Shown here: piece after piece, positions 2,656-60,564 of the stretch
Layout: the number at the start of each line of letters is the position of its first letter
Numbering within the stretch: position 1 is the first letter of the stretch
Source of the DNA: Acidobacteriota bacterium
GTDB lineage: Bacteria > Acidobacteriota > Aminicenantia > UBA2199
Assembly: GCA_018897435.1 (NCBI GenBank)
Contig: JAHIKI010000063.1
Coordinates: 16 to 64,015, forward strand
DNA length: 64,000 bases
Reading direction: 5' to 3'
The notes under the pieces: generated by a model
Told to the model about the DNA's origin: nothing
Seen by the model: the letters and a program-made list of their open reading frames with translations, nothing else
The model's database searches: none
Position numbers and translations under genes: made by a program

Positions 2656-3495
2656 ATGGATCTCGAGCGGCAATGCCTTGAAAAGATCGTGCGCCTGGCC
2701 CTGGCCGAGGACCGGGTCCGCGACGACATCACCACTAACGCCCTGGCCGATCTGGACGGGCCGGCCCGGGCTGAAGTGCGGGCCAAGGCGGCCGGAATCA
2801 TTTCGGGCATCAATGCCTTCCTGATGACAATGCGCCTGGTGGATGCTGCGCTGCTCGTCACTGTCCACGCCGGCGACGGTTCTGCCGTCAAGGCCGGAGA
2901 CCTGATCCTGGAGATCAGCGGTTGCGAAAGCTCGATCCTGAAAGGGGAGAGGACGGCATTGAATTTCCTGCAGCGCTTGAGCGGCGTGGCTACCCTGACC
3001 CGGCAATTCGTCGAAAAACTCAAGCCCTACCGCTCCGTGTTACTGGACACGCGCAAGACCACGCCCGGCATGCGCTACCTGGAAAAAAAAGCGGTGCGCG
3101 ACGGCGGCGGCCGGAATCACCGTCTGAATCTGGAAGAAATGGCCATGGTCAAGGACAACCACATCGCCATGGCCGGCGGCATCGGGCCGGCAGTTGCAAG
3201 GGTCCGTGCCGCCTGCCCGGGCAAGAAGATCGAAGTAGAAGTGAAAGATCTCTCGGAACTTGAGGAAGCTTTGGCGCTGGGGGTGGAAATGATCATGCTC
3301 GATAATTTCCCCCCGGAGCAGGTTTGCCTTGCCGTTTCGCTCAACCGCGGCCGGGCCAAACTCGAGATCTCCGGCAATGTCACCCTGGAAAACATCGCTG
3401 AAAAAGCGGCAGCGGGAGTGGATTTTATTTCGGCCGGGGCCCTGACCCATTCTTTTTACTCCCTGGATCTGAGTTTAAAGATAGTGAGGTCATAA
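2656..3495 (+). CDS. nadC: nicotinate-nucleotide pyrophosphorylase (quinolinate phosphoribosyltransferase)
   Basis: 279 aa. RKTTPGMRYLEKKAVRDGGGRNHRLNLEEMAMVKDNH is the NadC signature region. Adjacent to nadB. Confidence 0.92.
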   Translation: MDLERQCLEKIVRLALAEDRVRDDITTNALADLDGPARAEVRAKAAGIISGINAFLMTMRLVDAALLVTVHAGDGSAVKAGDLILEISGCESSILKGERTALNFLQRLSGVATLTRQFVEKLKPYRSVLLDTRKTTPGMRYLEKKAVRDGGGRNHRLNLEEMAMVKDNHIAMAGGIGPAVARVRAACPGKKIEVEVKDLSELEEALALGVEMIMLDNFPPEQVCLAVSLNRGRAKLEISGNVTLENIAEKAAAGVDFISAGALTHSFYSLDLSLKIVRS

Positions 3496-11146: not shown

Positions 11147-11256
11147 CAGTGAATAGTAAATAGTGATTCGTGATTAGAAAAGACAAGGCCAACGAATATT
11201 TCGTTTATTTTCTTAACCAATCACTATTCACCAATCACCAATCACCAATCACTGAG
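11147..11256. repeat. heptamer-array hairpin element, copy A
   Basis: Left arm is GTGAATA GTAAATA GTGATTC GTGATTA (11149-11176). Right arm (11217-11256) is the complement of a GTGATTG x3 / GTGAATA / GTGATTG array. A 39-nt spacer separates them. Lies between divergent tatA and the DUF4234 gene. Confidence 0.8.
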
Positions 11257-18165: not shown

Positions 18166-19335
18166 ATGATAAATATCGGCATTGTGGTACAGCGCTACGG
18201 CAGCGACGTGATCGGCGGGGCCGAAACCCTGGCCCGCAACGTCGCTGAGAGACTGCTCCGCCAAGGCTTCCGCGTCACCGTATTCACCACCTGTGCCAAG
18301 GATTACCTGACCTGGCGCAATGAGTATCCTGCCGGCGAGTCGATCCTGAAAGGGGTCCGGATCAAACGTTTCCCGGTGACACGTGAACGCGATATCAAAA
18401 AATTCAACAGTTTTTCCGAAGAATTTTTTCCGGCCGCCGCGGCGGGCCGCGATGAAACCAAATGGTTTGCGGAACAGGGACCTTTCTGCCCCGACCTGAT
18501 CCAGGAATTGGCTGCGGCGCAAAAGGGCATTGATCTTTTTTTCTTTTTCACCTACCTTTATTATCCGACCGTAGAGGGGATCAAAGCGGTCAGCAAGCCG
18601 GTAATCCTTTTTCCCACTGCCCACGACGAGCCACCGATTCACCTGCGGGCCATGGGCGAGGTCTTCCGCCGTCCCCAGGCTTTGTTTTTTTTGACCAGGG
18701 CCGAAATGGACCTGGTGAGCCGGCTGTTCGCCCCGCCGGGACGGATGCGCTTGGTGCGTACCGGTTTGGATATCCATCCCGATGTCGATGACAAGCCATT
18801 TCGCCGCCGCTACCTGCTAATCGCTCCCTACCTGCTTTATGCCGGCCGCATCGAAAAGGGCAAGGGCCTGGAAGAAGTTTATAAGTATTATTCTGCATTG
18901 AAGAATGAGGCATATGTGGACCTGGTCCTGATCGGCAAAAAGCTGATGGATATCCCCGCCAGCCAAGGGTTGAAATATCTGGGCTATGTATCTGAAAGCG
19001 ATAAGCTGGCCGCATTCAAAGGCGCTGTATGCTCTTTGCAGCCTTCGCCGCTGGAAAGCCTCTCCATCACCACCCTGGAATCATTTTCCGTGCAGACGCC
19101 GGTGCTGGTCAATCGCCGCTGTCCGGCTCTGCTGGAGCATGTCACCGCCTCCAGCGGCGGCTTGGCTTATGACAATGAAGAGGAATTTTTGGCAGGGTTC
19201 CGCCAACTATACCGGCGGCCGGGACTTAGGAAGCGCATGGGGGCCAAAGGGCTGGAATACGTGCGCAGCTATTACTCGTGGGATGCGGTATTGGCCGAGA
19301 TCAAGAAAGGCATAGACGAAATTTTGGCTGAGTGA
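18166..19335 (+). CDS. glycosyltransferase (GT-B fold, family 1/4)
   Basis: 389 aa. VVQRYGSDVIGGAETLAR N-terminus and a C-terminal E-x7-E-like region PSPLESLSITTLES. Confidence 0.8.
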   Translation: MINIGIVVQRYGSDVIGGAETLARNVAERLLRQGFRVTVFTTCAKDYLTWRNEYPAGESILKGVRIKRFPVTRERDIKKFNSFSEEFFPAAAAGRDETKWFAEQGPFCPDLIQELAAAQKGIDLFFFFTYLYYPTVEGIKAVSKPVILFPTAHDEPPIHLRAMGEVFRRPQALFFLTRAEMDLVSRLFAPPGRMRLVRTGLDIHPDVDDKPFRRRYLLIAPYLLYAGRIEKGKGLEEVYKYYSALKNEAYVDLVLIGKKLMDIPASQGLKYLGYVSESDKLAAFKGAVCSLQPSPLESLSITTLESFSVQTPVLVNRRCPALLEHVTASSGGLAYDNEEEFLAGFRQLYRRPGLRKRMGAKGLEYVRSYYSWDAVLAEIKKGIDEILAE

Positions 19336-19474
19336 TTAGTGATTGGTGAGAAGTGATTGGTGAAGAAGAAGGCATAAGCAATACATAGACCTTGCATCTG
19401 CGGTGAAAAGCAGTTTCAGAAAGATTTCGAGAAATTTCCTAACTAATCACGAATCACTATTTACTATTCACTAC
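19332..19474. repeat. heptamer-array hairpin element, copy B
   Basis: GTGATTA GTGATTG GTGAGAA GTGATTG GTGAAGA (19332-19366) starts inside the glycosyltransferase stop codon. The right arm at 19443-19472 is the perfect 30/30 reverse complement of 11148-11177. Confidence 0.85.
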
Positions 19475-21346: not shown

Positions 21347-23677
21347 TTACTGTAAATTTGCTTCTTGCAACGGTCTGATGATCTTGCTCTTGATGTTTTT
21401 TATTTTGATGGGATCTTCCAGGACGATATCCAGAAGTTCATCCATGGTGTTGACCGGGTGGATTTGGATGTCATTTTTCAGTTCTTCGGGAATATCTTCC
21501 TGGAAATCCTTTTCATTTTCCGCCGGGATCAGGATGTGCTTGATGCCATAGCGGTGGGCGGCGATGATCTTTTCCTTGATGCCGCCGACCGGCAGGATCT
21601 TGCCGCGCAGGGTGATCTCACCGGTCATGGCGTAATCGGACCTGACCGGAATACCGGTCAGCAGGGAGAGCAGTGATACGGCCAGGGTGACGCCCGCTGA
21701 TGGTCCCTCTTTGGGCACAGCGCCTTCGGGGATATGAAGGTGAATGTCGTAATTTTTCAGTTCTTCGGTGTCCATCTCCAGCTCGAAAAGTTTCAGTTTA
21801 GTGTAGCTGAAAGCGGCTGACGACGACTCCTTCATCACTTCACCCAAGCGGCCGGTCAGGATCAATTCCCCCTTGCCTTTCAGCATGCGGGATTCCACCA
21901 CCAGGATATCACCACCGGCCGCGGTCCAGGCCAGCCCTATGGCCACGCCAATTTCGTTGCTGTGGAATATCTTCTGGTTGTTGTATTTGGCGATGCCCAG
22001 GTATTTCCGCAACAAAGCCTGATCGATGATCTTGTTTCCCTTTTCCTTGCGCTTTTTGCCTGTTTCGATTATGCTGCGGGCGGTTTTTCTCATGATGACC
22101 GCGATTTCCCGTTCCAGATTGCGCACCCCGGCTTCGCGCGTATATTCGTTGATGATGCTCAGCAGGACGTCATCGCTGATCTGGATTTCGGCCGGGGAAA
22201 AACCGTTTTTTTTCGCCTGCTTTTTCAGCAGAAAATTCTTGGCGATCTGCAGTTTCTCCCTTTCGGTATAGCCCGGGAGCTCGATTACTTCCATGCGGTC
22301 AAGCAGGGCCGGAGGAATGTTGTCGGCAAAGTTGGCCGTGGTGATAAAAAAGACCTGGGACAGGTCCAGCTCCAGGTCCAGGTAATGGTCGGTGAATTCA
22401 GCATTCTGTTCGGGATCGAGAGCTTCGAGCAGTGCGGAAGCCGGGTCGCCGCGGAAATCCGAATTCAGTTTGTCAATCTCGTCGAGCAAAAAAACCGGGT
22501 TCATGCTGGCGGCTTTTCTCAGGCCTTTTACGATCTGGCCGGGATAGGAACCGATATAGGTGCGACGGTGGCCGCGGATTTCCGCTTCATCCTTGACCCC
22601 GCCCAGCGAAACGCGGACGAATTTGCGGTCCAGGGCCCGGGCGATGGATTTGGAAAGGGAACTCTTGCCCACCCCCGGTGGTCCGACAAAGCAGAGGATC
22701 TCTCCTTGCGATTTCTTAACCAGCAGCCGTACGGCCAGGTAGTCCAGTATCCGGTCCTTGACCTTGAGCAGTCCGTAATGATCCTCGTTAAGAATCTGAG
22801 CCGCCAGCCGAATATCCCTGTTTTCCTTTTTGAATTTTTTCCAGGGGATGGCCAGCAGCCAGTCCAGATAATATCGGGAAACCGTGCCTTCGGCTGAAAA
22901 CGGCGGCATGGCAGCCAGGCGTTCCAACTCCTCGTCGGCTCTGATCTTGACATACTCGGGTAACTGGGCCGCCGCGATCTTTTTTTTATATTCTTCGTAA
23001 TCGGTTTCCTGGCCTTCCTCGCGCTTCAGCTTGGGTTCGATGTCCCGCTGACTTCTGAGCTGCAGGACCTCCTTTTTCAATATGTTGTAAACCCGGACGG
23101 CGCGGGCATAGGTATTCAGCTCCTCCAGCAGCGATTGCTTGATCTTCAGGGGGATGTTGATGATGGAGATAATGATGTCCGAGGCATCGGCCAATTGGCT
23201 GGGCCTGAGCCGGGTCATGATGCCTGGCAGGCGGACCCGTTTCAAATTGATATATTCTTCGAACAGAGCGATAAGGTTGCGCGAAAGTTCCAGCAGGTCT
23301 TTGCCGCTATCAGTGTGCTCCTCCAAAATGTCCAGCCGTACAAGGTGAAAATCGCTGTTGTCGGCATAATTGAGAACCTGCCCTCTTTTCAAGCCCTGAA
23401 CAACGATACGGTAACTGCCGTTGTTCTGTTCGGCCGATTTTTCGATCTTGGCAATGGTTCCGATTTCATACATTTCTTCGGGCAGTGGCGCTTCGGTGAC
23501 CTGGTTTTTCTGAGCGGCCAGGAATATATAACCGCCGTAGGTGTTCAACGATGCTTTCAGGGCGTTGACCGATTTGTCGCGGCCCACCAGGATCGGCACG
23601 ATGACGTTGGGGAAGGACACCAGCTCCCGCAGGGGGATCAGCGGCAGAATCAGTTCCTTGGAATTCAGGCGATCCAT
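21347..23677 (-). CDS. lon: ATP-dependent Lon protease (copy 1)
   Basis: 776 aa. [10 protein letters not shown] Walker A and the catalytic [10 protein letters not shown] motif. Sits in a tig-clpP-clpX-lon cluster. Confidence 0.95.
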
Positions 23678-33341: not shown

Positions 33342-33806
33342 CTATGATCTTTTGTTGATCACTGTGGCCCGGTCATCGCCGTTGACCTTCAGTTCTGCAA
33401 AGCGCACGCTGAAGTAGCCTTCCACTTTGAAGGGCAGGGAATAGCCTGCTTCCCTGTGCAAAATAAAAAAATCGCTGCCGCCTCCGCGCGCCAGCCGCCG
33501 GCAGCCGCTGGTATTGGGTGACACAGGAAGTTCGATCTCTTCTATCCGGGTCGTTGTATCCGGACGGTGTCCCAGGTATCTCTTCAAGGACTCGGCCTCT
33601 TCGCGGCTGAATTGTTCATTGACATATTCCTCGGGGAAAACACGTTCTTTTTCGTTTAATTGGCCGTAGTCCAGGATTGCTGTTTCATAAGGTGCGAGCG
33701 GATTGCTTCGTTCCAGGACGAACCAGGTGATCTTCACTTCCTCGTATTGCTTGCCATCGTATAGAAAGTTTCGCGCCAGGGAATGGACGCTGAAAATGCT
33801 GCTCAC
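33342..33806 (-). CDS. hypothetical protein
   Basis: ORF 33342..33893. An in-frame GTG at 33806 follows AGGAGG. I recognise no family. Confidence 0.4.
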   Translation of the reverse strand: MSSIFSVHSLARNFLYDGKQYEEVKITWFVLERSNPLAPYETAILDYGQLNEKERVFPEEYVNEQFSREEAESLKRYLGHRPDTTTRIEEIELPVSPNTSGCRRLARGGGSDFFILHREAGYSLPFKVEGYFSVRFAELKVNGDDRATVINKRS

Positions 33807-34268
33807 TGCTCCTCCTGTTTCCGGATATAGTAATAACAAAGAGGAATTTAATTTGCAAGGGTAGGGGCGCCTCGTTTCCATATTGCGCCTCAATATGGAG
33901 ATGATATACCCAAAATTAATAAAATAACAAGCGCTTGTCGACAGTTACAATTAGGGTAAATTAAGCTAAATTGTAATTATACGTCATAATTATACGCCAT
34001 ATTTCGTGTACTCTGAGTTATACGCAAGGCGGAGCGCCAAAATTTCGGTAAAGATATAGATGCGGAAGAAAGCAGGAGAGGTAATAGAATGAACTATTCA
34101 GCCATAAGGGCCAATCATGCTCATGGCGCTGTCGGTGATTTTCTCAAGCAGGATGTTGCAAATAATTCTGAAGTCTCAGGGATAAAGTGATGAACTTGAT
34201 TTTAATCTATCAAACTGAAGGTTTAAATATGGCGATTTTGCCATAATTAGAGAAAAACAGGAGAACAG

Positions 34269-34352
34269 ATGAATAATCCTAATTTTAAAGAGGTCGAATT
34301 CGACAATTTTAAAATGCAGGCAGGTCTTTCAAGTTTGATATTTGATATTTGA
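34269..34352 (+). pseudogene. fragment of a KilA-N-type gene
   Basis: MNNPNFKEVEFDNFKMQAGLSSLIFDI* aligns with [25 protein letters not shown] of the 36668..37489 product (about 15 of 22 identical). Confidence 0.55.
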
Positions 34353-34412
34353 ATGAGTTTTATCTAAAATGCTTTTATTGAAACGTAATTTTTAAGATAG
34401 GCGAGGAGATTC

Positions 34413-36671
34413 ATGCCAAAACTGACTGATCAGGAACAACGGGAAATCATCCGTTATATTGAGGCGGGCAAGCCATTGCCGGACAAGTTTCGCTTCCTGT
34501 TGTTTGAGGAGAAGCGTGAAGTCGAGTTGGTCTGGAATGGCAAAACCAGTGAGGTTTGCAATATTGTCCTTCCTTTTCAGGTGATTGAACAAATAGATGA
34601 GCCTCGTTCAGAAGGAAAAAAGGAAAAGCAATACAAAATGTTCGAAGCCATGGGTTTCAGCCTCGATAATCGTGGCAGGCAGCTCAAGGGCTGGACCAAT
34701 AAGCTCATCTGGGGCGACAATAAGCTTATCCTCTCCTCACTGAAAAATGGCCCGCTTCGCGAAGAGATCGAAAAGCAGGGCGGCCTAAAGCTGATTTACA
34801 TTGACCCGCCGTTTGATGTGGGCGCAGATTTTTCCATGGACATCGAGATCGGTGATGACACCTTCACCAAGAAGCCCAACATCCTCGAAGAGATCGCCTA
34901 CCGCGACACCTGGGGCAAGGGGGCCGATTCCTTCATCACCATGATCTACGAACGGCTGGTGCTTATGCGTGATTTGCTGTCCGATGATGGCAGTATTTAT
35001 GTGCATTGTGATTGGCGGGTGAATGGGTATATACGACTTGTACTTGATGAAATCTTTGGGGCAAACAACTTTTTAAATCAAATTTCATGGAAAAGAACGC
35101 CTTTTGCTGGGAGTAGTAAAGCTCGTGCAAATAAATTTCCAATAAATCAGGATACACTTTTTTTTTATGCTAAGGATGAAAACAAATACATCTTTACCCA
35201 ACAGTATATTGACTATTCGGATGATTACAAGGAGAGATTTCAGTATGAAGACAAAAGAGGGTTCTATAGAAAGACATTGCTAAAAACATATTCTTTAGAA
35301 ACCGAGGAAAGATTAAAAAGAGAAGATAGATGGATTGATTCTATCAGACCGGGCGCATATCCATCCTATAAACAATACTTGCATGAGTCAAAAGGCAAGC
35401 AAATCGAAGATATTTGGACAGATGTAAATTCTGCAAATCCAATGGCGAATGAACGTGTGGATTACCCAACCCAAAAACCTGAAGCACTGCTTGAACGCAT
35501 AATCAAAGCTTCATCTAACGAAAACGACTTGGTAGCCGATTTTTTTTGTGGTTCCGGGACGACGGCGGTGGTGGCGGAGAAGTTGGGGCGGAAGTGGATT
35601 GTTAGCGATCTTGGCAAGTTCGCCATTCACACCACTCGCAAGCGATTGATTGGTGTGCAACGGCAGCTCAAGGCTGAAGGGAAAAACTATCGCGCTTTCG
35701 AAATCCTCAACATGGGAAGATATGAACGCCAGCATTATATTGGAGTTAATCCTAATTTACGTGAAATTGAACAACAAAAACAACTTGACGAAAAGGAAAA
35801 TGCTTTTATCGACTTGATCTTGCGCGCGTATCGTGCTGAAAGGACTGCAGGATTTCATACTTTCTCGGGGAAAAAAGCAGGGCGCTTGGTTGCGGTTGGC
35901 CCGGTCAATATGCCGGTGACACGCCTGTTTGTGGAAGAGGTCATTATCGAATGCCGCCAGAATCATATCACGCGGGTTGATATTCTTGGCTTTGAGTTTG
36001 AAATGGGATTGTTCCCCTTCGCGCTGGATGAAGCCAAAGCCAAGGGAATTGATATTGCCCCCAAGTACATTCCGGCTGATGTATTTGATAAACGAGCGGT
36101 TGAAAAGAACCAAGTTGTTTTCCATGATGTGGCTGCAATCGAAATCAAGCCGCATATCAAAAAAAATAGTGTGGCTGTAGAGCTGACCGATTTTTCGGTT
36201 TTCTATTCACAGGACTCTATTGCCAACGCCGAGGCAACTCTAAAAAATAAATCCAGCAAAATTGTGGTTGAGAGAGGTCAGATAGTTAAAGTGAGCAAAG
36301 ACAAAGACGGTATTGTTAGCCGCGAAGTCCTTACCAAACATTGGACCGACTGGATCGATTACTGGTCGGTGGATTTTAATTTTGAAAGCAAAAAAGAGAT
36401 CGTACGGGTGCCGGTAAATTCGCCCGAACCCTCACCCCCGACCCCTCTCCCAGAGGGCGAGGGGAGATTCGAGGAAGTCTGGACCGGGGAATACATCTTT
36501 GAAAACGAGTGGCAATCTTTCCGTACCAAAAAGGATCGTTTACTGGAACTGACCAGCAGCTTCTGCGAATGTGAGCCGGGACGACGAAAACTGGGCGTAA
36601 AAGTTGTGGATATTTTCGGCAATGACACAATGATGATCATTGAAATCAATGTGGGAGGGCAAAAACAGTGA
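34413..36671 (+). CDS. mod: Type III restriction-modification DNA methyltransferase (Mod, beta-class N6A/N4C)
   Basis: 752 aa. Motif [15 protein letters not shown] precedes motif [22 protein letters not shown] (beta-class order). Followed by res. Confidence 0.85.
36429..36468. repeat. 40-bp GC-rich repeat inside mod (inverted partner at 37730)
   Basis: CCCTCACCCCCGACCCCTCTCCCAGAGGGCGAGGGGAGAT is read in frame as [13 protein letters not shown]. It matches the reverse complement of 37730-37769 at 37/40 positions. Confidence 0.9.
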
Positions 36672-37489
36672 AAAAGATTAACGTGTTGGAAAAAGAGATA
36701 GCCCTCTACAAGAAAGATGATGAGGATTATATCTGCATAACCGATATCGCCAGATATAAAAACCCGGATAGAACGGATGACTTGATCAGAAACTGGCTTA
36801 GAAACAGGAATACGATTGAATTCTTGGGGGTTTGGGAGCATTTGAACAATCCGGATTTTAAAGCCGTCGAATTCGACGGGTTTAAAAAACAGGCGGGCCT
36901 TAATAGCTTTACATTGACTCCCAAGCAATGGATTGAAAAGACAAACGCCATTGGGTTGATATCCAAGGCGGGAAGATACGGCGGAACCTATGCCCACAAA
37001 GACATTGCTTTCGAGTTTGCGTCTTGGATTTCCGTTGAATTCAAGTTATACCTGATCAAGGAGTTCCAGCGCTTAAAGGACGAAGAGCACAAGCAGCTCG
37101 GCTGGGATATTCGGCGGAATCTGACCAAAATCAACTACCGGATTCATACCGGCGCCATCAAAGAGAACCTGATCCCGCCGGAACTCACTTTACGCCAGAC
37201 AAACCTAATCTACGCCTCGGAGGCGGATATTCTGAACATGGCCTTATTCGGCATAACCGCAAAGGAATGGCGTGACAGCCATCCGGGCGATAAGGGCAAT
37301 ATTCGAGACTACGCGAATGTGTCGCAGCTCGTTTGCCTCTCCAATCTGGAAAACCTGAATGCCCTTTTTATTCGGGAAAAGACACTACAGGCGGAGCGAC
37401 TCCGCAAATTGAACCAGATCGCAATCCAGCAGATGAGACTGCTGACGAATGACACTGGAATCAAGCGTCTTGAAGCGGGGGACAAATAA
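36668..37489 (+). CDS. KilA-N domain protein embedded between mod and res
   Basis: 273 aa. [34 protein letters not shown]...[21 protein letters not shown] matches the KilA-N family seen in R-M loci. GTGA overlap with mod and TAATG overlap with res. Confidence 0.75.
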
Positions 37490-40239
37490 TGGCGCTCCAT
37501 CCCAATTTCCCCGAATCGCCCTATGCCATCCTCGACCCGGCTATCCGCTGGTTTCCCGCCGATGAAGCCTTGCGCGAGACCAGTATGGAAAAGTTGATGC
37601 CGCCGTTGGTTTCGCAACTGCGCAAGAAAGTAAAAGAGTGGCGGGACAGTGGCTATGCCGGAGCGACAAACACCAGCAAGAGCCTGCTTAACTGGTGGTT
37701 TAACACCCCGCACCTGTTGCCCCAGGCTTATCTCCCCTCGCCTTCTGGGAGAGGGGTTGGGGGTGAAGGCTTGGCTGAGTTCCAATATTATTTTGCCCAA
37801 CGTGAAGCTCTGGAGACAATCATTTTTTTATACGATGTAGTGGGTGTCAAAGACAAATTCGACATGATGCGTTTTGACAGCTCCGGCCTGGTTTCGGCGA
37901 ATATGTTTGATGAAACCTGGCGACGCTTTGTGGTAAAAATGGCGACCGGTTCCGGGAAAACCAAAGTGTTGAGCCTGGTGCTGGCTTGGAGTTTTTTCCA
38001 TAAGCTGTATGAGGCGGGTTCAGAACTGGCGCGTAATTTCCTGGTGATCGCTCCCAACATCATTGTCCTGGACCGCATCTACAAGGATTTTCAGGGCTTG
38101 CGCATTTTTATTAAAGACGACCCGATTCTACCTGAAAACGGAGTGGACGGACACAACTGGCGCGATGATTTTCAAATGACTCTCCATGTGCAGGACGAAG
38201 TGAAGATCACCCGTCCCACGGGAAACATCTTCCTGACCAATATCCACCGCGTCTATGCCGGTGATGATATTCCAGCTTCGCCAAGCGACGAAAATACAAT
38301 GGATTATTTTTTGGGCAAAAAGCCAAGTGGGGCAACTATTGATTCCAAAGTGGATTTGGGCATGATTGTCCGCGATATTGATGAACTGATGGTTCTCAAT
38401 GATGAAGCCCATCATATTCACGACCCCCGCATGGCCTGGTTCAAGTCCATTGAGGATATCCATAACCGCCTGAAACAAAAGGGGGCCGCCCTTTCCATGC
38501 AGGTTGATACCACTGCAACCCCCAGGCATAACAATGGAGCGATATTCGTGCAAACGGTGGCCGATTATCCATTGGTTGAAGCCATCTCTCAGAATGTGGT
38601 CAAGCATCCAGTGCTTCCTGATCAACCGAGTCGTGCCAAATTGGATGAACGGCAGAGTGCCAAATATACCGAGAAATACGCTGACTATATTCACCTCGGA
38701 GTGATTGAGTGGCGCAAGGCGTATGCCGAACATGAAAAGATGGGTAAGAAAGCCATCTTGTTTGTCATGACCGACGATACCCGGAATTGCGATGATGTTG
38801 CCGAATATCTTGAAAGTAATTATCAGGATCTGAAAGATGCGGTACTGGTCATTCATACAAAAAAGAATGGTGAAATATCTGAATCAAGCACAGGCAAGGA
38901 CAAAGAGGAATTGGATAAGCTGCGCAAACAAGCCAATGATATTGATAGTCTGGACAGCCCTTACAAGGCCATCATTTCCGTAATGGTGCTTAAAGAGGGC
39001 TGGGATGTACGCAATGTCACCACTATTGTGGGATTACGCCCTTATGCCGCTCAAAGCAATATTCTGCCGGAACAGACATTGGGACGCGGTCTGCGCAAGA
39101 TGTATCCTGGTTTCATTGAAGAATATGTCAGTGTGGTTGGGACAAATGCGTTCATGGAATTCGTTGAATCGATCCAGGCAGAAGGCGTGGTGTTGGAGCG
39201 AAAGCCGATGGGGGAGGGAACTCAACCTAAAACCCCATTGGTTGTTGAAGTTGACAAAGAAAATGTCAAGAAAGATATTGATTCGTTGGACATTGAAATC
39301 CCGGTGCTGACTCCCCGTGTTTATCGGGAATATAAAAATCTGGGCGACCTTGATATTCACTCCTTAGGACATCAACGTGTGATCTATCGCCAGTTTTCAG
39401 AAGAGGAACAGCGTGAGATTGTATTCAAGGATATCACCACGGGCCAAGTAACACATACGACCATCCTTGATTCCGTTGGTGTTGCTGACTATAGCAGTGT
39501 AATCGGATATTTTACCCAGACAATCATGAAAGATTTAAGGTTGGTCAGCGGCTACAATGTGCTTTATGGAAAGGTAAAGGATTTTGTCAAAAATGAACTT
39601 TTCGATCACCCAGTGGAACTGGAAATTCCCAACACCCTGCGCAACTTGTCTGAATTGGCGGCAACAAAAACCCTGGTCGAGACGTTGAAAAAAGCAATTA
39701 ATGCCCTTACCGTAAAAGAAAAAGGCGACCTGTCTGCGTGCGGCCACGCACAGGCAGGCGCGGAAATTCGGGATTCAATAAAGCTTAGACAAACCCGCCC
39801 CTTTGTGGCCAAGGATCAGGGATATCTAATCCCGAAAAAAAGTGTCTTTAACCGGATCATTGGTGATAGCCATTTAGAGTTGTTGTTCGCCCGCTTCCTG
39901 GAAGATTGTGATGATGTGGTCTCCTACGCCAAGAATTATATGGCGGTACATTTCAAGCTGGATTATGTCAAGGCTGATGGCGACATCTCCAACTATTATC
40001 CTGATTTTATGGTCAAGCTGACTGACAAGCGAATTTTTATTGTTGAAACAAAAGGCATTGAAGACCTGGACGTCCCGCTCAAGATGGAGAGACTTCGGCA
40101 ATGGTGCATTGATATCAACCATATACAAACAGCCATAAAATACGACTTCGTCTATGTGGACCAGGAAAGCTTTGAAAAATTCCGGCCATCGTCCTTCAAA
40201 CAGTTGATTGATGGTTTCAGAATGTACAAAAAGAAATAA
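37489..40239 (+). CDS. res: Type III restriction enzyme Res subunit (SF2 helicase plus C-terminal PD-(D/E)xK nuclease)
   Basis: 916 aa. Motif I MATGSGKT, motif II LNDEAHH, and the C-terminal nuclease motif YYPDF...FIVETKG. Confidence 0.88.
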   Translation: MALHPNFPESPYAILDPAIRWFPADEALRETSMEKLMPPLVSQLRKKVKEWRDSGYAGATNTSKSLLNWWFNTPHLLPQAYLPSPSGRGVGGEGLAEFQYYFAQREALETIIFLYDVVGVKDKFDMMRFDSSGLVSANMFDETWRRFVVKMATGSGKTKVLSLVLAWSFFHKLYEAGSELARNFLVIAPNIIVLDRIYKDFQGLRIFIKDDPILPENGVDGHNWRDDFQMTLHVQDEVKITRPTGNIFLTNIHRVYAGDDIPASPSDENTMDYFLGKKPSGATIDSKVDLGMIVRDIDELMVLNDEAHHIHDPRMAWFKSIEDIHNRLKQKGAALSMQVDTTATPRHNNGAIFVQTVADYPLVEAISQNVVKHPVLPDQPSRAKLDERQSAKYTEKYADYIHLGVIEWRKAYAEHEKMGKKAILFVMTDDTRNCDDVAEYLESNYQDLKDAVLVIHTKKNGEISESSTGKDKEELDKLRKQANDIDSLDSPYKAIISVMVLKEGWDVRNVTTIVGLRPYAAQSNILPEQTLGRGLRKMYPGFIEEYVSVVGTNAFMEFVESIQAEGVVLERKPMGEGTQPKTPLVVEVDKENVKKDIDSLDIEIPVLTPRVYREYKNLGDLDIHSLGHQRVIYRQFSEEEQREIVFKDITTGQVTHTTILDSVGVADYSSVIGYFTQTIMKDLRLVSGYNVLYGKVKDFVKNELFDHPVELEIPNTLRNLSELAATKTLVETLKKAINALTVKEKGDLSACGHAQAGAEIRDSIKLRQTRPFVAKDQGYLIPKKSVFNRIIGDSHLELLFARFLEDCDDVVSYAKNYMAVHFKLDYVKADGDISNYYPDFMVKLTDKRIFIVETKGIEDLDVPLKMERLRQWCIDINHIQTAIKYDFVYVDQESFEKFRPSSFKQLIDGFRMYKKK
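37730..37769. repeat. 40-bp GC-rich repeat inside res (inverted partner of 36429)
   Basis: ATCTCCCCTCGCCTTCTGGGAGAGGGGTTGGGGGTGAAGG is read in frame as [13 protein letters not shown]. Confidence 0.9.
39729..39760. repeat. 32-bp imperfect palindromic element inside res
   Basis: CCTGTCTGCGTGCGGCCACGCACAGGCAGGCG encodes LSACGHAQAGA in frame. It matches 60501-60532 at 31/32 positions. Confidence 0.9.
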
Positions 40240-40244
40240 AAGAA

Positions 40245-41423
40245 GTGACTACTTCACGAATTGTTAATATTTCGGAAAATCTAGTAGCTCAAATAAATTC
40301 TAATATTTTTTTTCAAGAATTCACTTTTCAGAAAAACGAATTCTACCCTCCTGATACAAAAATTGAACTTCAATTAGCTGATAATGTTGTTTGGATTGAT
40401 GACTTACTTTTTATTTTTCAGATAAAAGATAGAAATAAAGATAGCTTATGTGATTCATCTAGTGAGTCAAAATGGTATCAAAATAAAGTAATAAAAAAGG
40501 GAGTTAGTCAGATAAAAGATACATTAGAATATTTTTCTAAGTACCCTCAAATTATTATCCAAAATGAAAGAGGATATAAAATAGATGTAGCAAAAGCAAA
40601 ACAAACTTTCATAAAAAATATTATTATTTTTAACCCAAATGAAAAATTTCCAGACGATCTTAGGTTCAACAAATTTCATGAAAGTAGAACAGCAGGGATA
40701 ATTCATCTTTTTCATATTGAAGATTATTTTAATATTTGTAAATATTTGATTACTCCATCTGAAATCAACGAATATCTTGAGTTCAGAGAAAAAATATATC
40801 TTAAACATAAATGTATTATAAACAATTTTCCTGAACAATACGTTTTGGGTCATTTTCTTGAAACGAGTGATATTTCTTTCATTAAACCTGAATATGTTGA
40901 AACTCTTAAGAGATTTAAACAAGAGTATTCAAATGATATTTTATTTTCAATTATTAAAATTTTTCGTGATAATACTGAAACTTATGAAAAAAAAGATGAT
41001 TATTTTTATATCCTAAAAGAAATAGCAAAACTTAAAAGAAATGAGTTTAAAGAATTTCAAAAACGATTTTTTATTTCTATTGAAAAATGTAATGAACAGA
41101 ATATCGTAGTTCCATATAGAATTTCTTTTCCAAGGATCAATTGTGGTTTTGTGTTTATCCCTTTAGCAAAAAAAAATTCAAATAATTGGAAAATAGCATT
41201 GCATAACTACACCATGGTTCACAAGTATGATCAAAAGCTTTCCAAATGTATTGGAATAATCTTTTTTAAAAGTTCTAACTCAAGATTGTCTTATGAAGTA
41301 TTCTGGGAATATGTTGAGATCGACTGGACTTATAATGAAGAAATGGAAAAAGTAATAAAGGAAAAATTTCCTTTTAGAGAAATACATGAGCACGAATTAG
41401 AAAGATATGAATTTGATAAATAA
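40245..41423 (+). CDS. hypothetical protein, very AT-rich, possible PD-(D/E)xK-like motif
   Basis: 392 aa. GTG start 5 nt after the res stop. IELQLADNVVWIDDLLFIFQIKDR could be a D...(E/Q)-x-K nuclease core. Composition differs strikingly from mod/res. Confidence 0.5.
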   Translation: MTTSRIVNISENLVAQINSNIFFQEFTFQKNEFYPPDTKIELQLADNVVWIDDLLFIFQIKDRNKDSLCDSSSESKWYQNKVIKKGVSQIKDTLEYFSKYPQIIIQNERGYKIDVAKAKQTFIKNIIIFNPNEKFPDDLRFNKFHESRTAGIIHLFHIEDYFNICKYLITPSEINEYLEFREKIYLKHKCIINNFPEQYVLGHFLETSDISFIKPEYVETLKRFKQEYSNDILFSIIKIFRDNTETYEKKDDYFYILKEIAKLKRNEFKEFQKRFFISIEKCNEQNIVVPYRISFPRINCGFVFIPLAKKNSNNWKIALHNYTMVHKYDQKLSKCIGIIFFKSSNSRLSYEVFWEYVEIDWTYNEEMEKVIKEKFPFREIHEHELERYEFDK

Positions 41424-41597
41424 GACATCAAGATCAGATTTTTCATTATATCGGATTATGCTTAAATGACAAGTTTAGCTGGACAAAATAGAAGAAAATT
41501 AAACCATTTGCTACGAGTGTGGTAGGTCGGGATTCAATTGTTGCATTATTTACAATGGTTCAAAAAAATGATCCCGTCGCGGTTGCTGAAATAAAGT

Positions 41598-43040
41598 TCA
41601 AGCCAGGTTTTTTAGATATTCGATCAGCAGGCGCACGCCGAAGCCGGTCGCCCCTTCAGCGGCTAGACAGAAATTTGGCTTGCTCAGGAAAGCTGTGCCG
41701 GCGATATCCAAATGGGCGAAGGGAATATTGCCGACAAATTCATGTAAAAACAGGCCGGCCTTGATCGAGGAGGCGCCTTTATAGTTGGCGTTTTTCAGGT
41801 CGGCGATCTTGGAAGTGATGCTTTCCCGGTATTCAATGGGCAGCGGCATTTGCCAGAGCAGCTCCCCGCAGTTTTCGGCCGCCTGCAGCAGCCCGGCGTT
41901 CAGTTTCTTGTTGCGGCAGAACAGCCCGGCATAGGAGTCGCCCAGGGCGGTGATGATGGCCCCGGTCAAAGTGGAGAGTTCGATGATCATATCCGGCTTC
42001 TGCCGGGAGGCCATGATCAGGGCGTCGGCCAGGATCAGGCGGCCTTCGGCGTCGGTGTTGACGATCTCAACGGTTTTCTTGTTGGCGTAAGTGATGATGT
42101 CTCCCGGTTTGTAGGCCCGGCGTCCGGGCATATTTTCGGCCAGGGCCGCGAATCCGATCACCCTGATTGGCAGTTCCAGTGCGGCCACAGTGTTCAGGAT
42201 ACCCAATACGGCGGCGGCGCCAGCCATGTCGCTTTTCATTTCCTCCATGCTGTTTCCCGGTTTCAGGTTCAAACCGCCGGCATCGAATGTGATCCCCTTG
42301 CCGACCAGGGCCACGGTCCGCGTATAACTTTTCGGGATATGGGACAGGGTGAGCAGGGCCGGAGAACAGCATGAGGAGGCGCCCACGGCGAGCAAGCCGT
42401 TCAGACCCAGTTCCTCCAGTTCCTTTTTACGATAAACTGCCAGTTGCAGATGATTTTTTCCGGCGCTGTCGCTAAAAACCTGCACCAGTGAATCCGGGGT
42501 AATCTTGGCCGGAATCTCGTTGACCAGGTCGCGGGCCAGGGTCACCTGGCGCTGAATGATCTCCCGGGCCTTAAGGTCATTGTTGCTCAAAGCAGCCGGT
42601 TTTTTCAATACCAACTGGATCCTGTCGACAGCCTTGTTTTTTTTTCTTTTATAGCGGTCGAAGCGGTAATTGTTCAGGTGCAGATAATCGACAAGGTTGA
42701 CCAGGTAGCCATGGGAGTACGGACCAGGCGGGATAAAATAAACCAGGGCCTTGCTGACGCGGTTTTCCCGCAAAAGGGTCATGGTTTTGCAGGCCAGTTT
42801 CCGGGCGTCGGGCAGTGAACCGCGGCGTCCGGCCCCGACCAGCAGGAACAGCCGCTGCTGCTGCAGCGAGTGGCAAACCTGCGCTTCGCTGGACGCGCCC
42901 TTGATTTTTTTGTCGCGGTCGAGAAATTTCAATTCGGGAAATTCCTGCCAAATCGCTGCCAGAGTCGTTCCCTGGAAAACGGGAATGACCACGGCGGCAT
43001 GCTCTTCCGGTTTGTAGTTGTTCTTTTTTACGATCTTCAT
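41598..43040 (-). CDS. pepA: leucyl aminopeptidase (M17)
   Basis: 480 aa. The NTDAEGRL signature and VGKGITFDAGG. Confidence 0.92.
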   Translation of the reverse strand: MKIVKKNNYKPEEHAAVVIPVFQGTTLAAIWQEFPELKFLDRDKKIKGASSEAQVCHSLQQQRLFLLVGAGRRGSLPDARKLACKTMTLLRENRVSKALVYFIPPGPYSHGYLVNLVDYLHLNNYRFDRYKRKKNKAVDRIQLVLKKPAALSNNDLKAREIIQRQVTLARDLVNEIPAKITPDSLVQVFSDSAGKNHLQLAVYRKKELEELGLNGLLAVGASSCCSPALLTLSHIPKSYTRTVALVGKGITFDAGGLNLKPGNSMEEMKSDMAGAAAVLGILNTVAALELPIRVIGFAALAENMPGRRAYKPGDIITYANKKTVEIVNTDAEGRLILADALIMASRQKPDMIIELSTLTGAIITALGDSYAGLFCRNKKLNAGLLQAAENCGELLWQMPLPIEYRESITSKIADLKNANYKGASSIKAGLFLHEFVGNIPFAHLDIAGTAFLSKPNFCLAAEGATGFGVRLLIEYLKNLA

Positions 43041-43996: not shown

Positions 43997-46380
43997 TAAA
44001 ATATTTTTTTGACCAGGGCGGCGTTAACCGCCTCTTTGAAGTCATGGATAAATATAAAATTCATTAATCGGATGTGGCCGTCCTTGAGTTCGCTCAAGTC
44101 CTTTTTGTTTTTCTCCGGCAGGATAATTGTCTTGATCCCGGCCCGGCGCGCGGACAGCACTTTTTCCTTGATGCCGCCCACCGGCAGTACTTTGCCGCGC
44201 AGGGTGATCTCTCCGGTCATGGCGATCTCGCGGTTCACGGCGATACCGGTAAACGCCGAGATTAGCGCCGTGGTCAGGGTGATTCCGGCCGAAGGTCCGT
44301 CCTTGGGAATGCCTCCCTCAGGAATGTGAATGTGGATATCGTTCTTTTCGAACTTTTCGGGAGCGAGCTGCAGCTGGGCGGATGAGGCCTTGATCAGGCT
44401 CAAAGCGGCGCTGGCCGATTCCTTCATGACGTCGCCGAGGGATCCGGTCAGGATCAGGGTCCCTTTGCCCGGGATCAGCTTGACCTCAATGAAAAGGATG
44501 TCCCCGCCATAGGGCGTCCAGGCCATGCCTGTGGCCACGCCCACCGAGTTTTCCTCCAGCAGTTGGTCGCGGAACAGCTTGGGGATGCCGGCGTATTTTT
44601 CCAGGTTGCGGATGGTGATCTTATATAGTTTCTTTTCACCCAGAGCCACTTTGTGAGCCACTTTGCGGCAGATGCCGCCGATTTCCCTTTCCAGGTTGCG
44701 CACCCCCGCTTCCCGCGTGTACAGGGCGATGATGTTTTTCAGCGCCCCGGCGGTGAATTCGATCAAATGCGAGTTCAAGCCGTTGGTTTCGACCTGGCGC
44801 GGGATCAGGTGGCGGCGGGCGATCTCGATTTTTTCTTCCTCTGTATAGCCGTGGATTTCGATGACCTCCATGCGGTCGCGGAAAGCGGGCTGGATTGGCT
44901 CCAGAAGGTTGGCTGTGGTGATGAACAGGACCTTGGAAAGGTCGAACGGCACCCCCAGGTAGTGGTCGGTGAAGGAGTTGTTCTGCTCGGGGTCCAAGAC
45001 TTCCAGAAGGGCCGAGGAGGGGTCGCCGCGGAAATCCATGCCGATCTTGTCCACTTCATCCATCATGAACACAGGGTTGTTGCTGGCGGCATTTTTCAAT
45101 TCCTGGATGATCTTGCCGGGCAGGGCTCCGACGTAGGTGCGCCGGTGGCCGCGGATTTCGGCTTCGTCGCGCACCCCGCCCAGTGAAATGCGCACGAACT
45201 TTTTGTTCAGGGCGCGGGCGATGGACTTGCCCAGGGAAGTTTTTCCCACTCCGGGCGGGCCGACGAAACACAGGATCGGCCCGTGGGCCTTGGAGGTCAG
45301 CTTACGGACAGCCAGATATTCCAATATCCTTTCCTTTACTTTTTCCAGTCCGTAGTGGTCCTGGTTCAATATGCTCTTGGCTCGTTTCAAGTTCATGTTG
45401 TCTTTGCTGGCGGTCCCCCAGGGCAGTTCGAACATCCAGTCCAGATAGGTCCGGGTTACGGTGCTTTCGGCAGATTCCGGATGCATTTTTTTCAGACGGT
45501 CGATATTTTTCTCGGTTTCCTTGCGGGCAGCTTCCGGCATTTTCACTTCTTCCAGCTTTTTCAGGTAACTGTTGATCTCGTCGATATTCTCGGCCTCTTC
45601 ACCCAATTCTTTTTTGATGGCCTTCAATTGCTGGCGCAGGAAATACTCTTTTTGATTCTTGTCCATCTCGCCCTGGGCTTTGATGTTGATCTGGTTCTGC
45701 ACGTTCAGCATTTCGATTTCATAATTCAGATATTCGTGGATCTTGGCCAGTCTTTTAAGTGAATTCTTCTCTGCCAGGATTTTCTGGGATTCCTCGATCT
45801 TCAATTCCAGGTTGGAGGCGATGATATCAGCCAGTTTGCCCGGTTCTTCTATGTTTTCGGCTATGATCAGGATCTCGTTGGAGATCTGTTTTCCCAGCTT
45901 GCTGACCTGTTCGAATTTTTGGCGTACATTCTTGATCATGGCTTTGTTTTCCAGCGTCAGCTCGGCCGGTTCTTCGTCTTCCACTTGCATGACCTCGGCC
46001 TGCATAATTTTGCCGTCGTCGATCAGTGTCCGTACTTTGACCCGGGAAACACCCTGGATGAGCACGCGCATGCGGCCGTCGGGGAGCTTGAGCATGCGCA
46101 CGATCAGGGCCACGGTCCCGGATTGATACAATTGCTCTTCACTGGGGTCTTCCACGTTCATGTCTTTCTGGGTCAGCAGCAGGATCAAGCGGTCGCTGTT
46201 CAGGGCCGCATCGACGGCCTTTTTGGATTTGGCGCGCCCGACATAAAGGGGTACGATCATATAGGGGAAAACCACGATATCGCGTAAAACCAGCACGGAC
46301 AGGCTTTCAGGGACCTTGATTTTATCCAATTTCTCCTCTTGTTCCTGCCCGGCATGGATGTTTTTTTGTTCTTCGGCCAT
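43996..46380 (-). CDS. lon: ATP-dependent Lon protease (copy 2)
   Basis: 794 aa. [10 protein letters not shown] and the catalytic [10 protein letters not shown] motif. Sits downstream of hsp20. Confidence 0.95.
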
Positions 46381-60447: not shown

Positions 60448-60564
60448 TCGCATGACAGCGGATAAAAGGGGGAAATTTCATTTCCCCAAAAAATTGCCTT
60501 CCTGTCTGCGTGCGGACACGCACAGGCAGGCGGCAACTTCTTTATCCGCATACGTTATATGACA
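60448..60564 (+). other. attC-like site 3 (long, with nested hairpins)
   Basis: CATGAC (60451) plus AGCGGATAAAAG pairs with CTTTATCCGCATAC, followed by GTTATAT (60554-60560). The flanks are homologous to attC-like site 1 (CATACTTC...AGCGG / GTTATNTGACATTC). Confidence 0.55.
60501..60532. repeat. 32-bp imperfect palindromic element inside attC-like site 3
   Basis: CCTGTCTGCGTGCGGACACGCACAGGCAGGCG matches the copy inside res (39729-39760) at 31/32 positions. Confidence 0.9.

Follow-up and report, generated by a model that had tools for sequence, protein, structure and literature searches.

Why should a restriction-modification (R-M) operon carry a long pair of inverted repeats inside its two main genes, and does the pair do anything there? 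The question is raised by a 64,000-nucleotide stretch of an Acidobacteriota bacterium genome (GCA_018897435.1, contig JAHIKI010000063.1, positions 16 to 64,015 of the forward strand), referred to as the window throughout, in which the repeats lie within the methyltransferase gene mod and the restriction gene res of a Type III R-M system and enclose a KilA-N gene. The initial annotation, made from the sequence alone, offered two answers: that the repeats are copies of a dispersed G/C-rich palindrome tolerated in frame, or that they are the arms of an invertible segment acting as an ON/OFF switch. Our results strongly support the first, through the match to a published repeat family, its cross-phylum spread, the absence of the mod copy from all 62 homologues, and the repeated insertion in one res loop. 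Very probably, the arms are separate copies of a ~38-bp element, a variant of the G/C-rich triplex motif (TM) family known as TM_ECO, PIT, or BoxC, each independently inserted in an indel-tolerant loop of a mobile Type III R-M module.

The features on which the argument turns are as follows.
34413-36671 (+): mod, 752 aa, Type III N6_N4 DNA methyltransferase (Pfam N6_N4_Mtase, E = 1e-46)
36429-36468 (+): TM copy 1, in frame in mod; extended arm 36417-36468; pyrimidine-pyrimidine-purine orientation
36668-37489 (+): KilA-N gene, 273 aa, its start and stop overlapping mod and res
37489-40239 (+): res, 916 aa, Type III ResIII helicase and endonuclease (Pfam ResIII, E = 2.4e-14)
37730-37769 (-): TM copy 2, in frame in res; extended arm 37730-37781; reverse complement of copy 1 (37/40)

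The repeat pair and the family to which it belongs

The 40-mer CCCTCACCCCCGACCCCTCTCCCAGAGGGCGAGGGGAGAT at 36429-36468 recurs only once in the window, 3 mismatches away, at 37730-37769 (-), and chance matches to it arose in none of 100 dinucleotide-preserving shuffles. Ungapped extension of the arms gives 52 nt at 85% complementarity with a spacing of 1261 nt, the longest inverted repeat within the window; the longest perfect identity from arm to arm is 14 bp. Arm 2 reads CCCCTCGCCT-TCT-GGGAGAGGGG-TT-GGGGGTGAAGG and arm 1, reverse-complemented, CCCCTCGCCC-TCT-GGGAGAGGGG-TC-GGGGGTGAGGG. Each copy encodes a 13-residue peptide (Mod residues 673-685 and Res residues 81-93), and each arm is predicted to form its own local hairpin, the two at -24 and -28.5 kcal/mol. 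Window search, translation, and folding prediction thus confirm what had first been noticed here, namely 40-bp inverted repeats, 37/40 identical, ~1.26 kb apart, in frame in mod and res and each holding a hairpin of its own.

The gene layout that had been inferred is likewise borne out by open reading frames (ORFs) and Pfam: mod, KilA-N, and res lie on the same strand (+) with successive stop and start codons overlapping, and one operon combines a Mod methyltransferase with a Res SF2 helicase bearing a C-terminal endonuclease, the mark of a Type III R-M system. The C-terminal RE_endonuc match of Res (E = 2.4e-4, 21.3 bits) lies slightly below the Pfam cut-off of 23.4 bits. Mod and Res give weak matches in the PDB to EcoP15I Mod and Res; the structures of EcoP15I and other methyltransferases could be aligned only across the catalytic cores, leaving the insertion loops outside the alignment.

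What, then, is the palindrome? Holder et al. (2015, Nucleic Acids Research [NAR] 43:10126; PMC4666352) describe a G/C-rich intrastrand triplex motif, TM_ECO, earlier named BoxC (Bachellier, 1990s) and then PIT elements (Hoyne/Maher 2000), whose single-stranded DNA folds into a stable triplex in vitro, as judged by circular dichroism and nuclear magnetic resonance. Their strict pattern has 3610 copies in 262 proteobacterial genomes, with related G/C-rich motifs abundant in cyanobacteria, and in E. coli K-12 the count is 23, "always located intergenically," of which five form close inverted pairs (PMC4666352). They found neither mobility genes nor promoter or terminator activity, no functional correlation among flanking E. 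coli genes and no coding copies there, and they linked TM loci with local sequence variability among E. coli strains (PMC4666352).

The stems of the arms are near-identical to those of TM_ECO (CCCTCGCCC / GGGAGAGGG / GGGTGAGGG), and both window copies match a relaxed TM pattern. The strict published pattern, CCCTCNCCC N3-6 GGGNGAGGG N3 GGGNGAGGG with 9-nt stems and a 3-nt second loop, is matched neither by the two copies nor by the cross-phylum consensus described below, because their stems, at 10/10/11 nt, exceed it by 1-2 G/C and their second loop has 2 nt; the arms are therefore a variant of the TM class and not TM_ECO sensu stricto. As judged from sequence, they are two copies of the known TM/PIT/BoxC family in variant form, predicted here to form Watson-Crick hairpins.

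The hairpin core CCCCTCTCCCAGARGGCGAGGGGAG (25 nt) was searched by exact match against 185,579 species-representative genomes and found in at least 120 loci of many phyla, with sharp borders at ~38 bp and unrelated flanks. Among the matches listed are Cyanobacteria, Chloroflexota/Dehalococcoidia, Planctomycetota, Ignavibacteria, Nitrospirota, Armatimonadota, Zixibacteria, and others, together with Beta-, Gamma-, Delta-, and Alphaproteobacteria; cultured isolates include Geobacter hydrogenophilus DSM 13691, Pseudomonas xionganensis, Spirulina subsalsa CS-330, Plasticicumulans lactativorans DSM 25287, and Citrifermentans bremense R1. The consensus of 121 stacked copies from these matches is CCCTCACCCCC-NN-CCCCTCTCCCAGAGGGCGAGGGGAG, which again breaks off abruptly at either end, the flanks being unrelated. 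Inverted pairs with a spacing of 20-30 nt are frequent among the listed copies from cyanobacteria and Thiomargarita. Unannotated sites in 3282 of the 5426 complete E. coli genomes align by blastn with the 41-nt consensus, covering at least 80% of it at 80-90% identity. The element is thus a dispersed, multicopy repeat with a conserved core, sharp borders, and no linked transposase.

Insertion sites in Mod, Res, and other proteins

To place the insertions, 80 R-M loci (L121-L200) were compared, 78 with Res aligned over the insertion point and 62 with Mod aligned. The relatives of Res, at 78-93% identity, come from dozens of bacterial phyla and from two archaeal metagenome-assembled genomes (MAGs; L184 and L193, one of them Methanothrix), and on this distribution the Type III module is extremely mobile horizontally.

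The ancestral res site reads PHLLPQA/DGTMA/EFQYYF in the 78 aligned homologues. The res copy replaces the ancestral DGT(M), for a net gain of 11 codons (+33 bp). A TM stands at this site, in one orientation or the other, in about 10 of the 78: seven loci have it in the window ('-') orientation (L122, where it is partly deleted, L124, L129, L132, L140, L145, and L189), and three in the opposite ('+') orientation, beginning four codons upstream (L128, L148, and L178). Degenerate G-rich remnants are seen at the site in L134 and L187. Since both orientations occur, the TM has inserted in this loop at least twice.

The mod site has a different history. None of the 62 Mod homologues has a TM there, and the window copy is a net insertion of 36 bp (12 codons) relative to orthologues, whose basal state is RVKNEETGEWEE. 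The loop, in the C-terminal part of Mod, is hypervariable and has received many unrelated insertions; in L123 and L133, the window's own flanks (RVPVN...GGFEEVW) surround a different G/C element (CCCCCCTTTGACAAAGGGGGGAGCGAAGCGGGGGG). This structured insert, CCCCCCTTTGACAAAGGGGGG-AGCGAAGC-GGGGGG, is found at ~3895-3935 of L123 and ~4880-4925 of L133. The sequences suggest a turnover of structured elements at the same site. The idea that both peptides might be lineage-specific insertions therefore holds for Mod, with its 0/62, and fails for Res, whose TM recurs in about 10/78.

Individual relatives make the same point. The syntenic orthologue L091, on the same contig as L145, has the res TM and lacks the mod TM, at amino-acid identities of 69% for mod, 70% for KilA-N, and 81% for res. 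The nearest relative, L121 (Aminicenantes UBA6072, Res 93% identical), has neither copy. Along res, L121 is closest throughout (0.87-0.96 nucleotide identity) except for ~110 nt just 5' of the TM, where it drops to 0.76 and the best matches include TM-bearing alleles, with no clear donor; this dip points to local mosaicism or instability, as far as an alignment can tell.

A decayed copy of the R-M system at L048 (1959-2412) carries an in-frame mini-mod, in which Mod residues ~97-693 have been deleted between two CTGGACC microhomologies, and its res has an internal deletion (residues ~214-872) with the TM retained. A mod deletion ending at the TM was considered for this locus and rejected, the junction being the CTGGACC microhomology, ~30 nt from the mod TM site.

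The course of events that best accounts for these sites is as follows. The two TM copies would have entered Mod and Res separately, each in a surface loop that tolerates indels; the family's res loop has received the element two or more times, in either orientation, and the mod insertion is seen in this lineage alone. That the copies face opposite ways fits chance, one in two for two independent insertions, with no evidence of selection, and an inverted arrangement around KilA-N fits coincidence. Both TM-bearing proteins would remain functional, and the inverted pair would have no programmed job, adding at most a risk of rare rearrangement.

Two observations weigh against this account. A filled site departs from an empty one in more than the added element, a few target codons having been replaced and no target-site duplication being present, so TM insertion is inferred from comparison and not observed. 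Also, two TMs lie within 1.3 kb and no other in ~295 kb of the host lineage, unlike random placement: we found none in 237 kb of Aminicenantes-lineage loci and none in the ~58 kb of the window outside the R-M island. As far as sampled, the element is consequently cross-bacterial and not a resident high-copy repeat of this host, and it probably came in with the R-M module or was gained during the module's wanderings, to judge from where copies do and do not occur. A pair in so TM-poor a host is accommodated only with the added observation that TMs concentrate in defence genes.

That observation begins with the reading frames. Five of the six frames of the consensus are open and encode linker-like peptides rich in P/S/G/E/R, and multiple-of-three insertions such as those in mod (+36 bp) and res (+33 bp) therefore survive in frame. 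We counted a copy as lying within a gene when the stop-to-stop ORF around it ran to 250 codons or more and extended 40 codons or more to either side of the TM; among the matches listed, 46 of 123 copies (120 loci) did so, using the frames as follows.
13-residue-peptide frame: 22 copies
PSPPxPLPEGEG frame: 11 copies
12-residue-peptide frame: 7 copies
remaining frames: 6 copies

The two commonest frames (22 and 11) are the two used in the window. Pfam domains confirm 31 of the listed host ORFs as real proteins, and the TM is usually located at a domain boundary of its host. A literature search found no report of TM-encoded peptides.

Defence proteins (R-M, bacteriophage exclusion [BREX], and CRISPR) make up 17 of the 45 listed in-frame TM host ORFs, and PADLOC is concordant:
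MmeI-type IIG enzymes: L006, L012, L114
HsdS: L010
N6_N4 methyltransferase: L014
Type ISP enzyme: L033
HsdM / N6_Mtase: L036, L088, L092
HsdR: L079, L085, L088
Eco57I/PglX-like methyltransferases: L083, L093
Cas10/Cmr2: L107
Type III Res homologues: L048, L091

Hosts outside defence include PFOR, a P-type ATPase, PolA, an epimerase, a radical SAM enzyme, alpha-2-macroglobulin, and a sensor kinase. The control set consisted of 90 TM-free long ORFs picked at random from the same loci; these belong to ordinary housekeeping families, with R-M components at most ~5 of the 90. The difference (17/45 vs. 5/90 among the matches listed) gives p = 5e-6 by Fisher's exact test, and p = 2.5e-4 if the two Res homologues are left out and seven defence ORFs are allowed in the controls. 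These values should be read with the sample in mind, which consists of the 120 loci listed, scanned with one sequence variant taken from an R-M gene, and in which some hosts share orthologous insertions (L006/L114 and L085/L088).

Could the pair have a function?

If TMs concentrate in defence genes, do they serve them? A passive account is sufficient for the enrichment: large, fast-evolving, horizontally transferred multidomain proteins tolerate linker insertions and take them from host to host. It is unlikely, in our estimate, that the TM variant is more than a neutral passenger and acts as an in-frame micro-homology or instability site at the borders between domains in defence genes (Type I, IIG, ISP, and III R-M, BREX PglX-like methyltransferases, and Cas10, in two favored frames), promoting their exchange, inactivation, or rearrangement. 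Should it be so, the inverted pair could mediate a rare inversion silencing the R-M system, and the filled and empty site pairs in this mobile Type III family would offer a first handle on BoxC/PIT/TM insertion.

That TMs are kept in defence genes for such a function, as portable in-frame sites of recombination or instability that speed the exchange, inactivation, and diversification of R-M, BREX, and CRISPR modules, with the pair at the present locus as one instance, we consider distinctly improbable. The bias toward defence hosts with its p = 5e-6, the usual position at domain boundaries, the strong bias in frame use, and the stretch immediately 5' of the res TM where identity with the nearest relative dips all speak for it, as does the association of E. 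coli TMs with local variability (PMC4666352). Set against these are the passive explanation of the enrichment, the lack of any chimeric gene with a breakpoint at a TM among those found, the mod deletion of L048 with endpoints at CTGGACC and not at a TM, and a sample confined to the 120 loci listed and one sequence variant.

The switch has the attraction of being predictable in detail. Recombination between the arms would invert 36469-37729, and in silico the mod junction then reads ...GAGGGGAGAT joined to AAGCCTGGGGCAACAGG, so that Mod ends at ...EGEGR followed by TAA (685 aa), the first 80 codons of res are detached, and the res body is left behind ~190 codons of antisense junk without a proper start. 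This reproduces the TAA directly after EGEGR and the loss of the res 5' end that the initial annotation had derived by hand, and such an event would reversibly silence the R-M system. The geometry suits, with flanking inverted repeats of 52 nt at 85% complementarity and a long, G/C-rich arm-to-arm duplex, and TMs are tied to local genomic instability in E. coli (PMC4666352).

The remaining evidence goes the other way. As had been remarked, no recombinase gene is adjacent: a Pfam scan of the island (33.9-41.5 kb) finds none among mod, KilA-N, res, and a 392-aa ORF, and the neighboring orf183 has no Pfam hit; the remaining window was not exhaustively scanned. The pair is confined to this lineage, with the mod arm in 0/62 homologues and both arms together in no related locus. 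Uninterrupted arm identity reaches at most 14 bp, which is below the needs of efficient RecA-dependent recombination. The inverted state yields truncations and no alternative functional product.

Orientation was compared through two further contigs from independent NCBI assemblies, located by exact lookup of the KilA-N protein, which was chosen because its sequence is unaltered by inversion; the unique mod flank ATCGTACGGGTGCCGGTAAATTCGCCCGAA had no match in genome or metagenome contig collections. L201 (GCA_018897215.1) is 100% identical to window 33986-42489, and L202 (GCA_022013915.1) departs from the window at a single base. All three assemblies, that of the window included, show the native orientation, which, from so small a number, is weak evidence. 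The differing base lies elsewhere in mod and makes the sole ON/OFF-type difference between assemblies:
35158-35166 (+): T9 homopolymer in mod; T8 in L202

The T8 tract frameshifts mod into ORFs of 289 and 487 aa. Slipped-strand phase variation, the classic route for mod genes of Type III systems, could account for the difference; to judge from this single case, so could a fixed mutation or an error of assembly. The reading as the arms of an invertible ON/OFF segment thus finds no support, and we regard it as very unlikely; three assemblies leave room for a rare inversion.

An effect on RNA is just as doubtful. The arms might pair over 1.26 kb in a polycistronic mRNA, looping out KilA-N and the start of res and modulating translation or RNase III cleavage, for example so as to delay Res. 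The predicted arm-to-arm RNA duplex, at ~-102 kcal/mol, is far more stable than the -24 and -28.5 kcal/mol local hairpins, and the three genes share one strand with overlapping stop and start codons. Against this, the arms lie within translated ORFs, where ribosomes would unwind them; the mod partner is absent from every homologue examined, so that there is no conservation or covariation; and an Rfam E-value scan of 36300-37900 returned chance microRNA and long noncoding RNA hits only. We rate such pairing as highly improbable.

The slot between mod and res is variable: it may be empty (mod abutting res), hold KilA-N (15/80 loci), or hold other DNA of ~0.3-0.9 kb. Two of the 15 KilA-N loci have the res TM, none has the mod TM, and 13 are without any TM; on these counts, KilA-N is an optional occupant of the slot, unrelated to the TMs. 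That the arms are the terminal inverted repeats of a cassette, similar to a transposon or a miniature inverted-repeat transposable element, which brought KilA-N between mod and res, is suggested by their flanking that gene and by the variability of the slot, and is exceedingly unlikely, since conserved coding sequence from the mod 3' and res 5' ends lies between the arms, collinear with TM-free homologues, and the arms differ in age and distribution; given how KilA-N and the TMs are distributed over the 80 loci, we reject it.

Genomic setting, neighboring repeats, and known systems

The surroundings of the locus include the following.
33894-41597 (7.7 kb): R-M island, between orf183 (33342-33893) and pepA (41598-43040)
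40245-41423: 392-aa ORF straight after res, local G+C 28%; Shedu SduA_C match weak and short of the Pfam cut-off (E = 1.8e-4)
39729-39758 (+): second palindrome, CCTGTCTGCGTGCGGCCACGCACAGGCAGG, a 30-bp in-frame insertion in res encoding LSACGHAQAG

The island is lower in G+C than its surroundings, consistent with island status. The flanking leucyl aminopeptidase is 76-88% identical to proteins of Aminicenantes MAGs, in which the neighbors of pepA vary: it directly adjoins orf183 in L324 and L325 and an SDR gene in L327, and other inserts, of 4.6 and 2.8 kb, occupy the island position in L322 and L323. The R-M locus is therefore an island in a variable integration hotspot of Aminicenantes-like genomes. 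The 392-aa ORF may, on its composition and weak hit, be a separately acquired nuclease or defence gene. Just 5' of mod, ~80 bp (34263-34342) share 74% identity with the KilA-N gene segment 36836-36915, and in sequence this looks like what is left of another KilA-N gene where the island begins. The L201 and L202 contigs, both from short-read MAGs, end at window positions 33986 and 34123, in the AT-rich left border of the island with its small tandem repeats (33949-34001); contig ends at 33949-34130 suggest a repeat or coverage break.

The second palindrome (CCTGTCTGCGTGCGGnCACGCACAGGCAGG) is G/C-rich and unrelated to the TM, and the orthologue L091 lacks this insertion. Another copy lies within 60488-60532 of the window. 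It is dispersed over many phyla with sharp borders (at least 119 loci) and is mostly intergenic, 7 of 61 copies among the matches listed lying in long ORFs. In L213 (~3254-3282), it is nested in a TM, between the first C-rich block and the hairpin, an arrangement suggesting that both palindromes are insertional elements.

Other repeats in the window are of different kinds. Inverted repeats of CACCAATCAC / AGTGATT-type units, unrelated to the TM, stand ~8 kb apart at 11148-11256 and 19328-19472, matching over up to 30 nt at 100% and 36 nt at 89%. The segments 21806-22769 and 44398-45346 share ~71% identity at a constant offset of 22,577 nt and are same-strand paralogous genes.

It is important to consider what the locus offers if its candidate switch is, as we think very probable, explained away as two copies, oriented by chance, of a repeat family on record since the 1990s. 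No function or means of spread is known for BoxC/PIT/TM elements, and their E. coli copies have been described as strictly intergenic. Bearing on this are a ~38-bp element in frame in real proteins across phyla and enriched in defence genes, together with one promiscuous Type III Res loop hit at least twice, for which many empty-site alleles are available for comparison. The locus can thus serve as a comparative system for TM insertion and for its possible shaping of defence-gene evolution. Annotators should be warned that Pro/Ser/Gly-rich inserts of 12-13 residues in bacterial proteins, such as PSPPAPLPEGEG, are repeat-derived.

How do the arms compare with systems already known? Beyond their stems, they resemble TM_ECO in being dispersed and sharply bordered without associated mobility genes, and close inverted pairs are common in other genomes. 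They differ in stem length (10/10/11 nt) and in the 2-nt second loop, and the variant is found far beyond the Proteobacteria. Whereas E. coli copies are reported always to be intergenic, both window copies are in frame inside genes, and the window pair is 1261 bp apart, compared with tens of bp for TM_ECO pairs.

Known phase-variable R-M systems include the simple-sequence-repeat phasevarions of Type III mod genes and the invertible hsdS loci of Type I systems, the latter with an adjacent recombinase and alternative functional coding states. Like them, the present locus is an R-M system with a repeat feature able, on paper, to switch expression, and its T9/T8 difference in mod resembles slipped-strand switching. 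Unlike invertible hsdS, it has no recombinase in the island, and inversion gives truncations only; unlike the tracts of phasevarions, T9 is short, was seen to differ once, and that difference is possibly an assembly error.

A parallel for in-frame insertion is offered by the Rickettsia palindromic elements (RPEs), reportedly described by Ogata et al. in 2000, which are said to be 100-150 bp long, to occur in Rickettsia only, and to lie in frame in protein-coding genes. The two have no sequence relationship, and the TM, at ~38 bp, is spread over many phyla and has, in organisms examined to date, been mostly intergenic. RPEs and TMs are nevertheless alike in being short palindromes in frame in genes, each adding a peptide, leaving the ORF intact, and changing its length by a net multiple of three.

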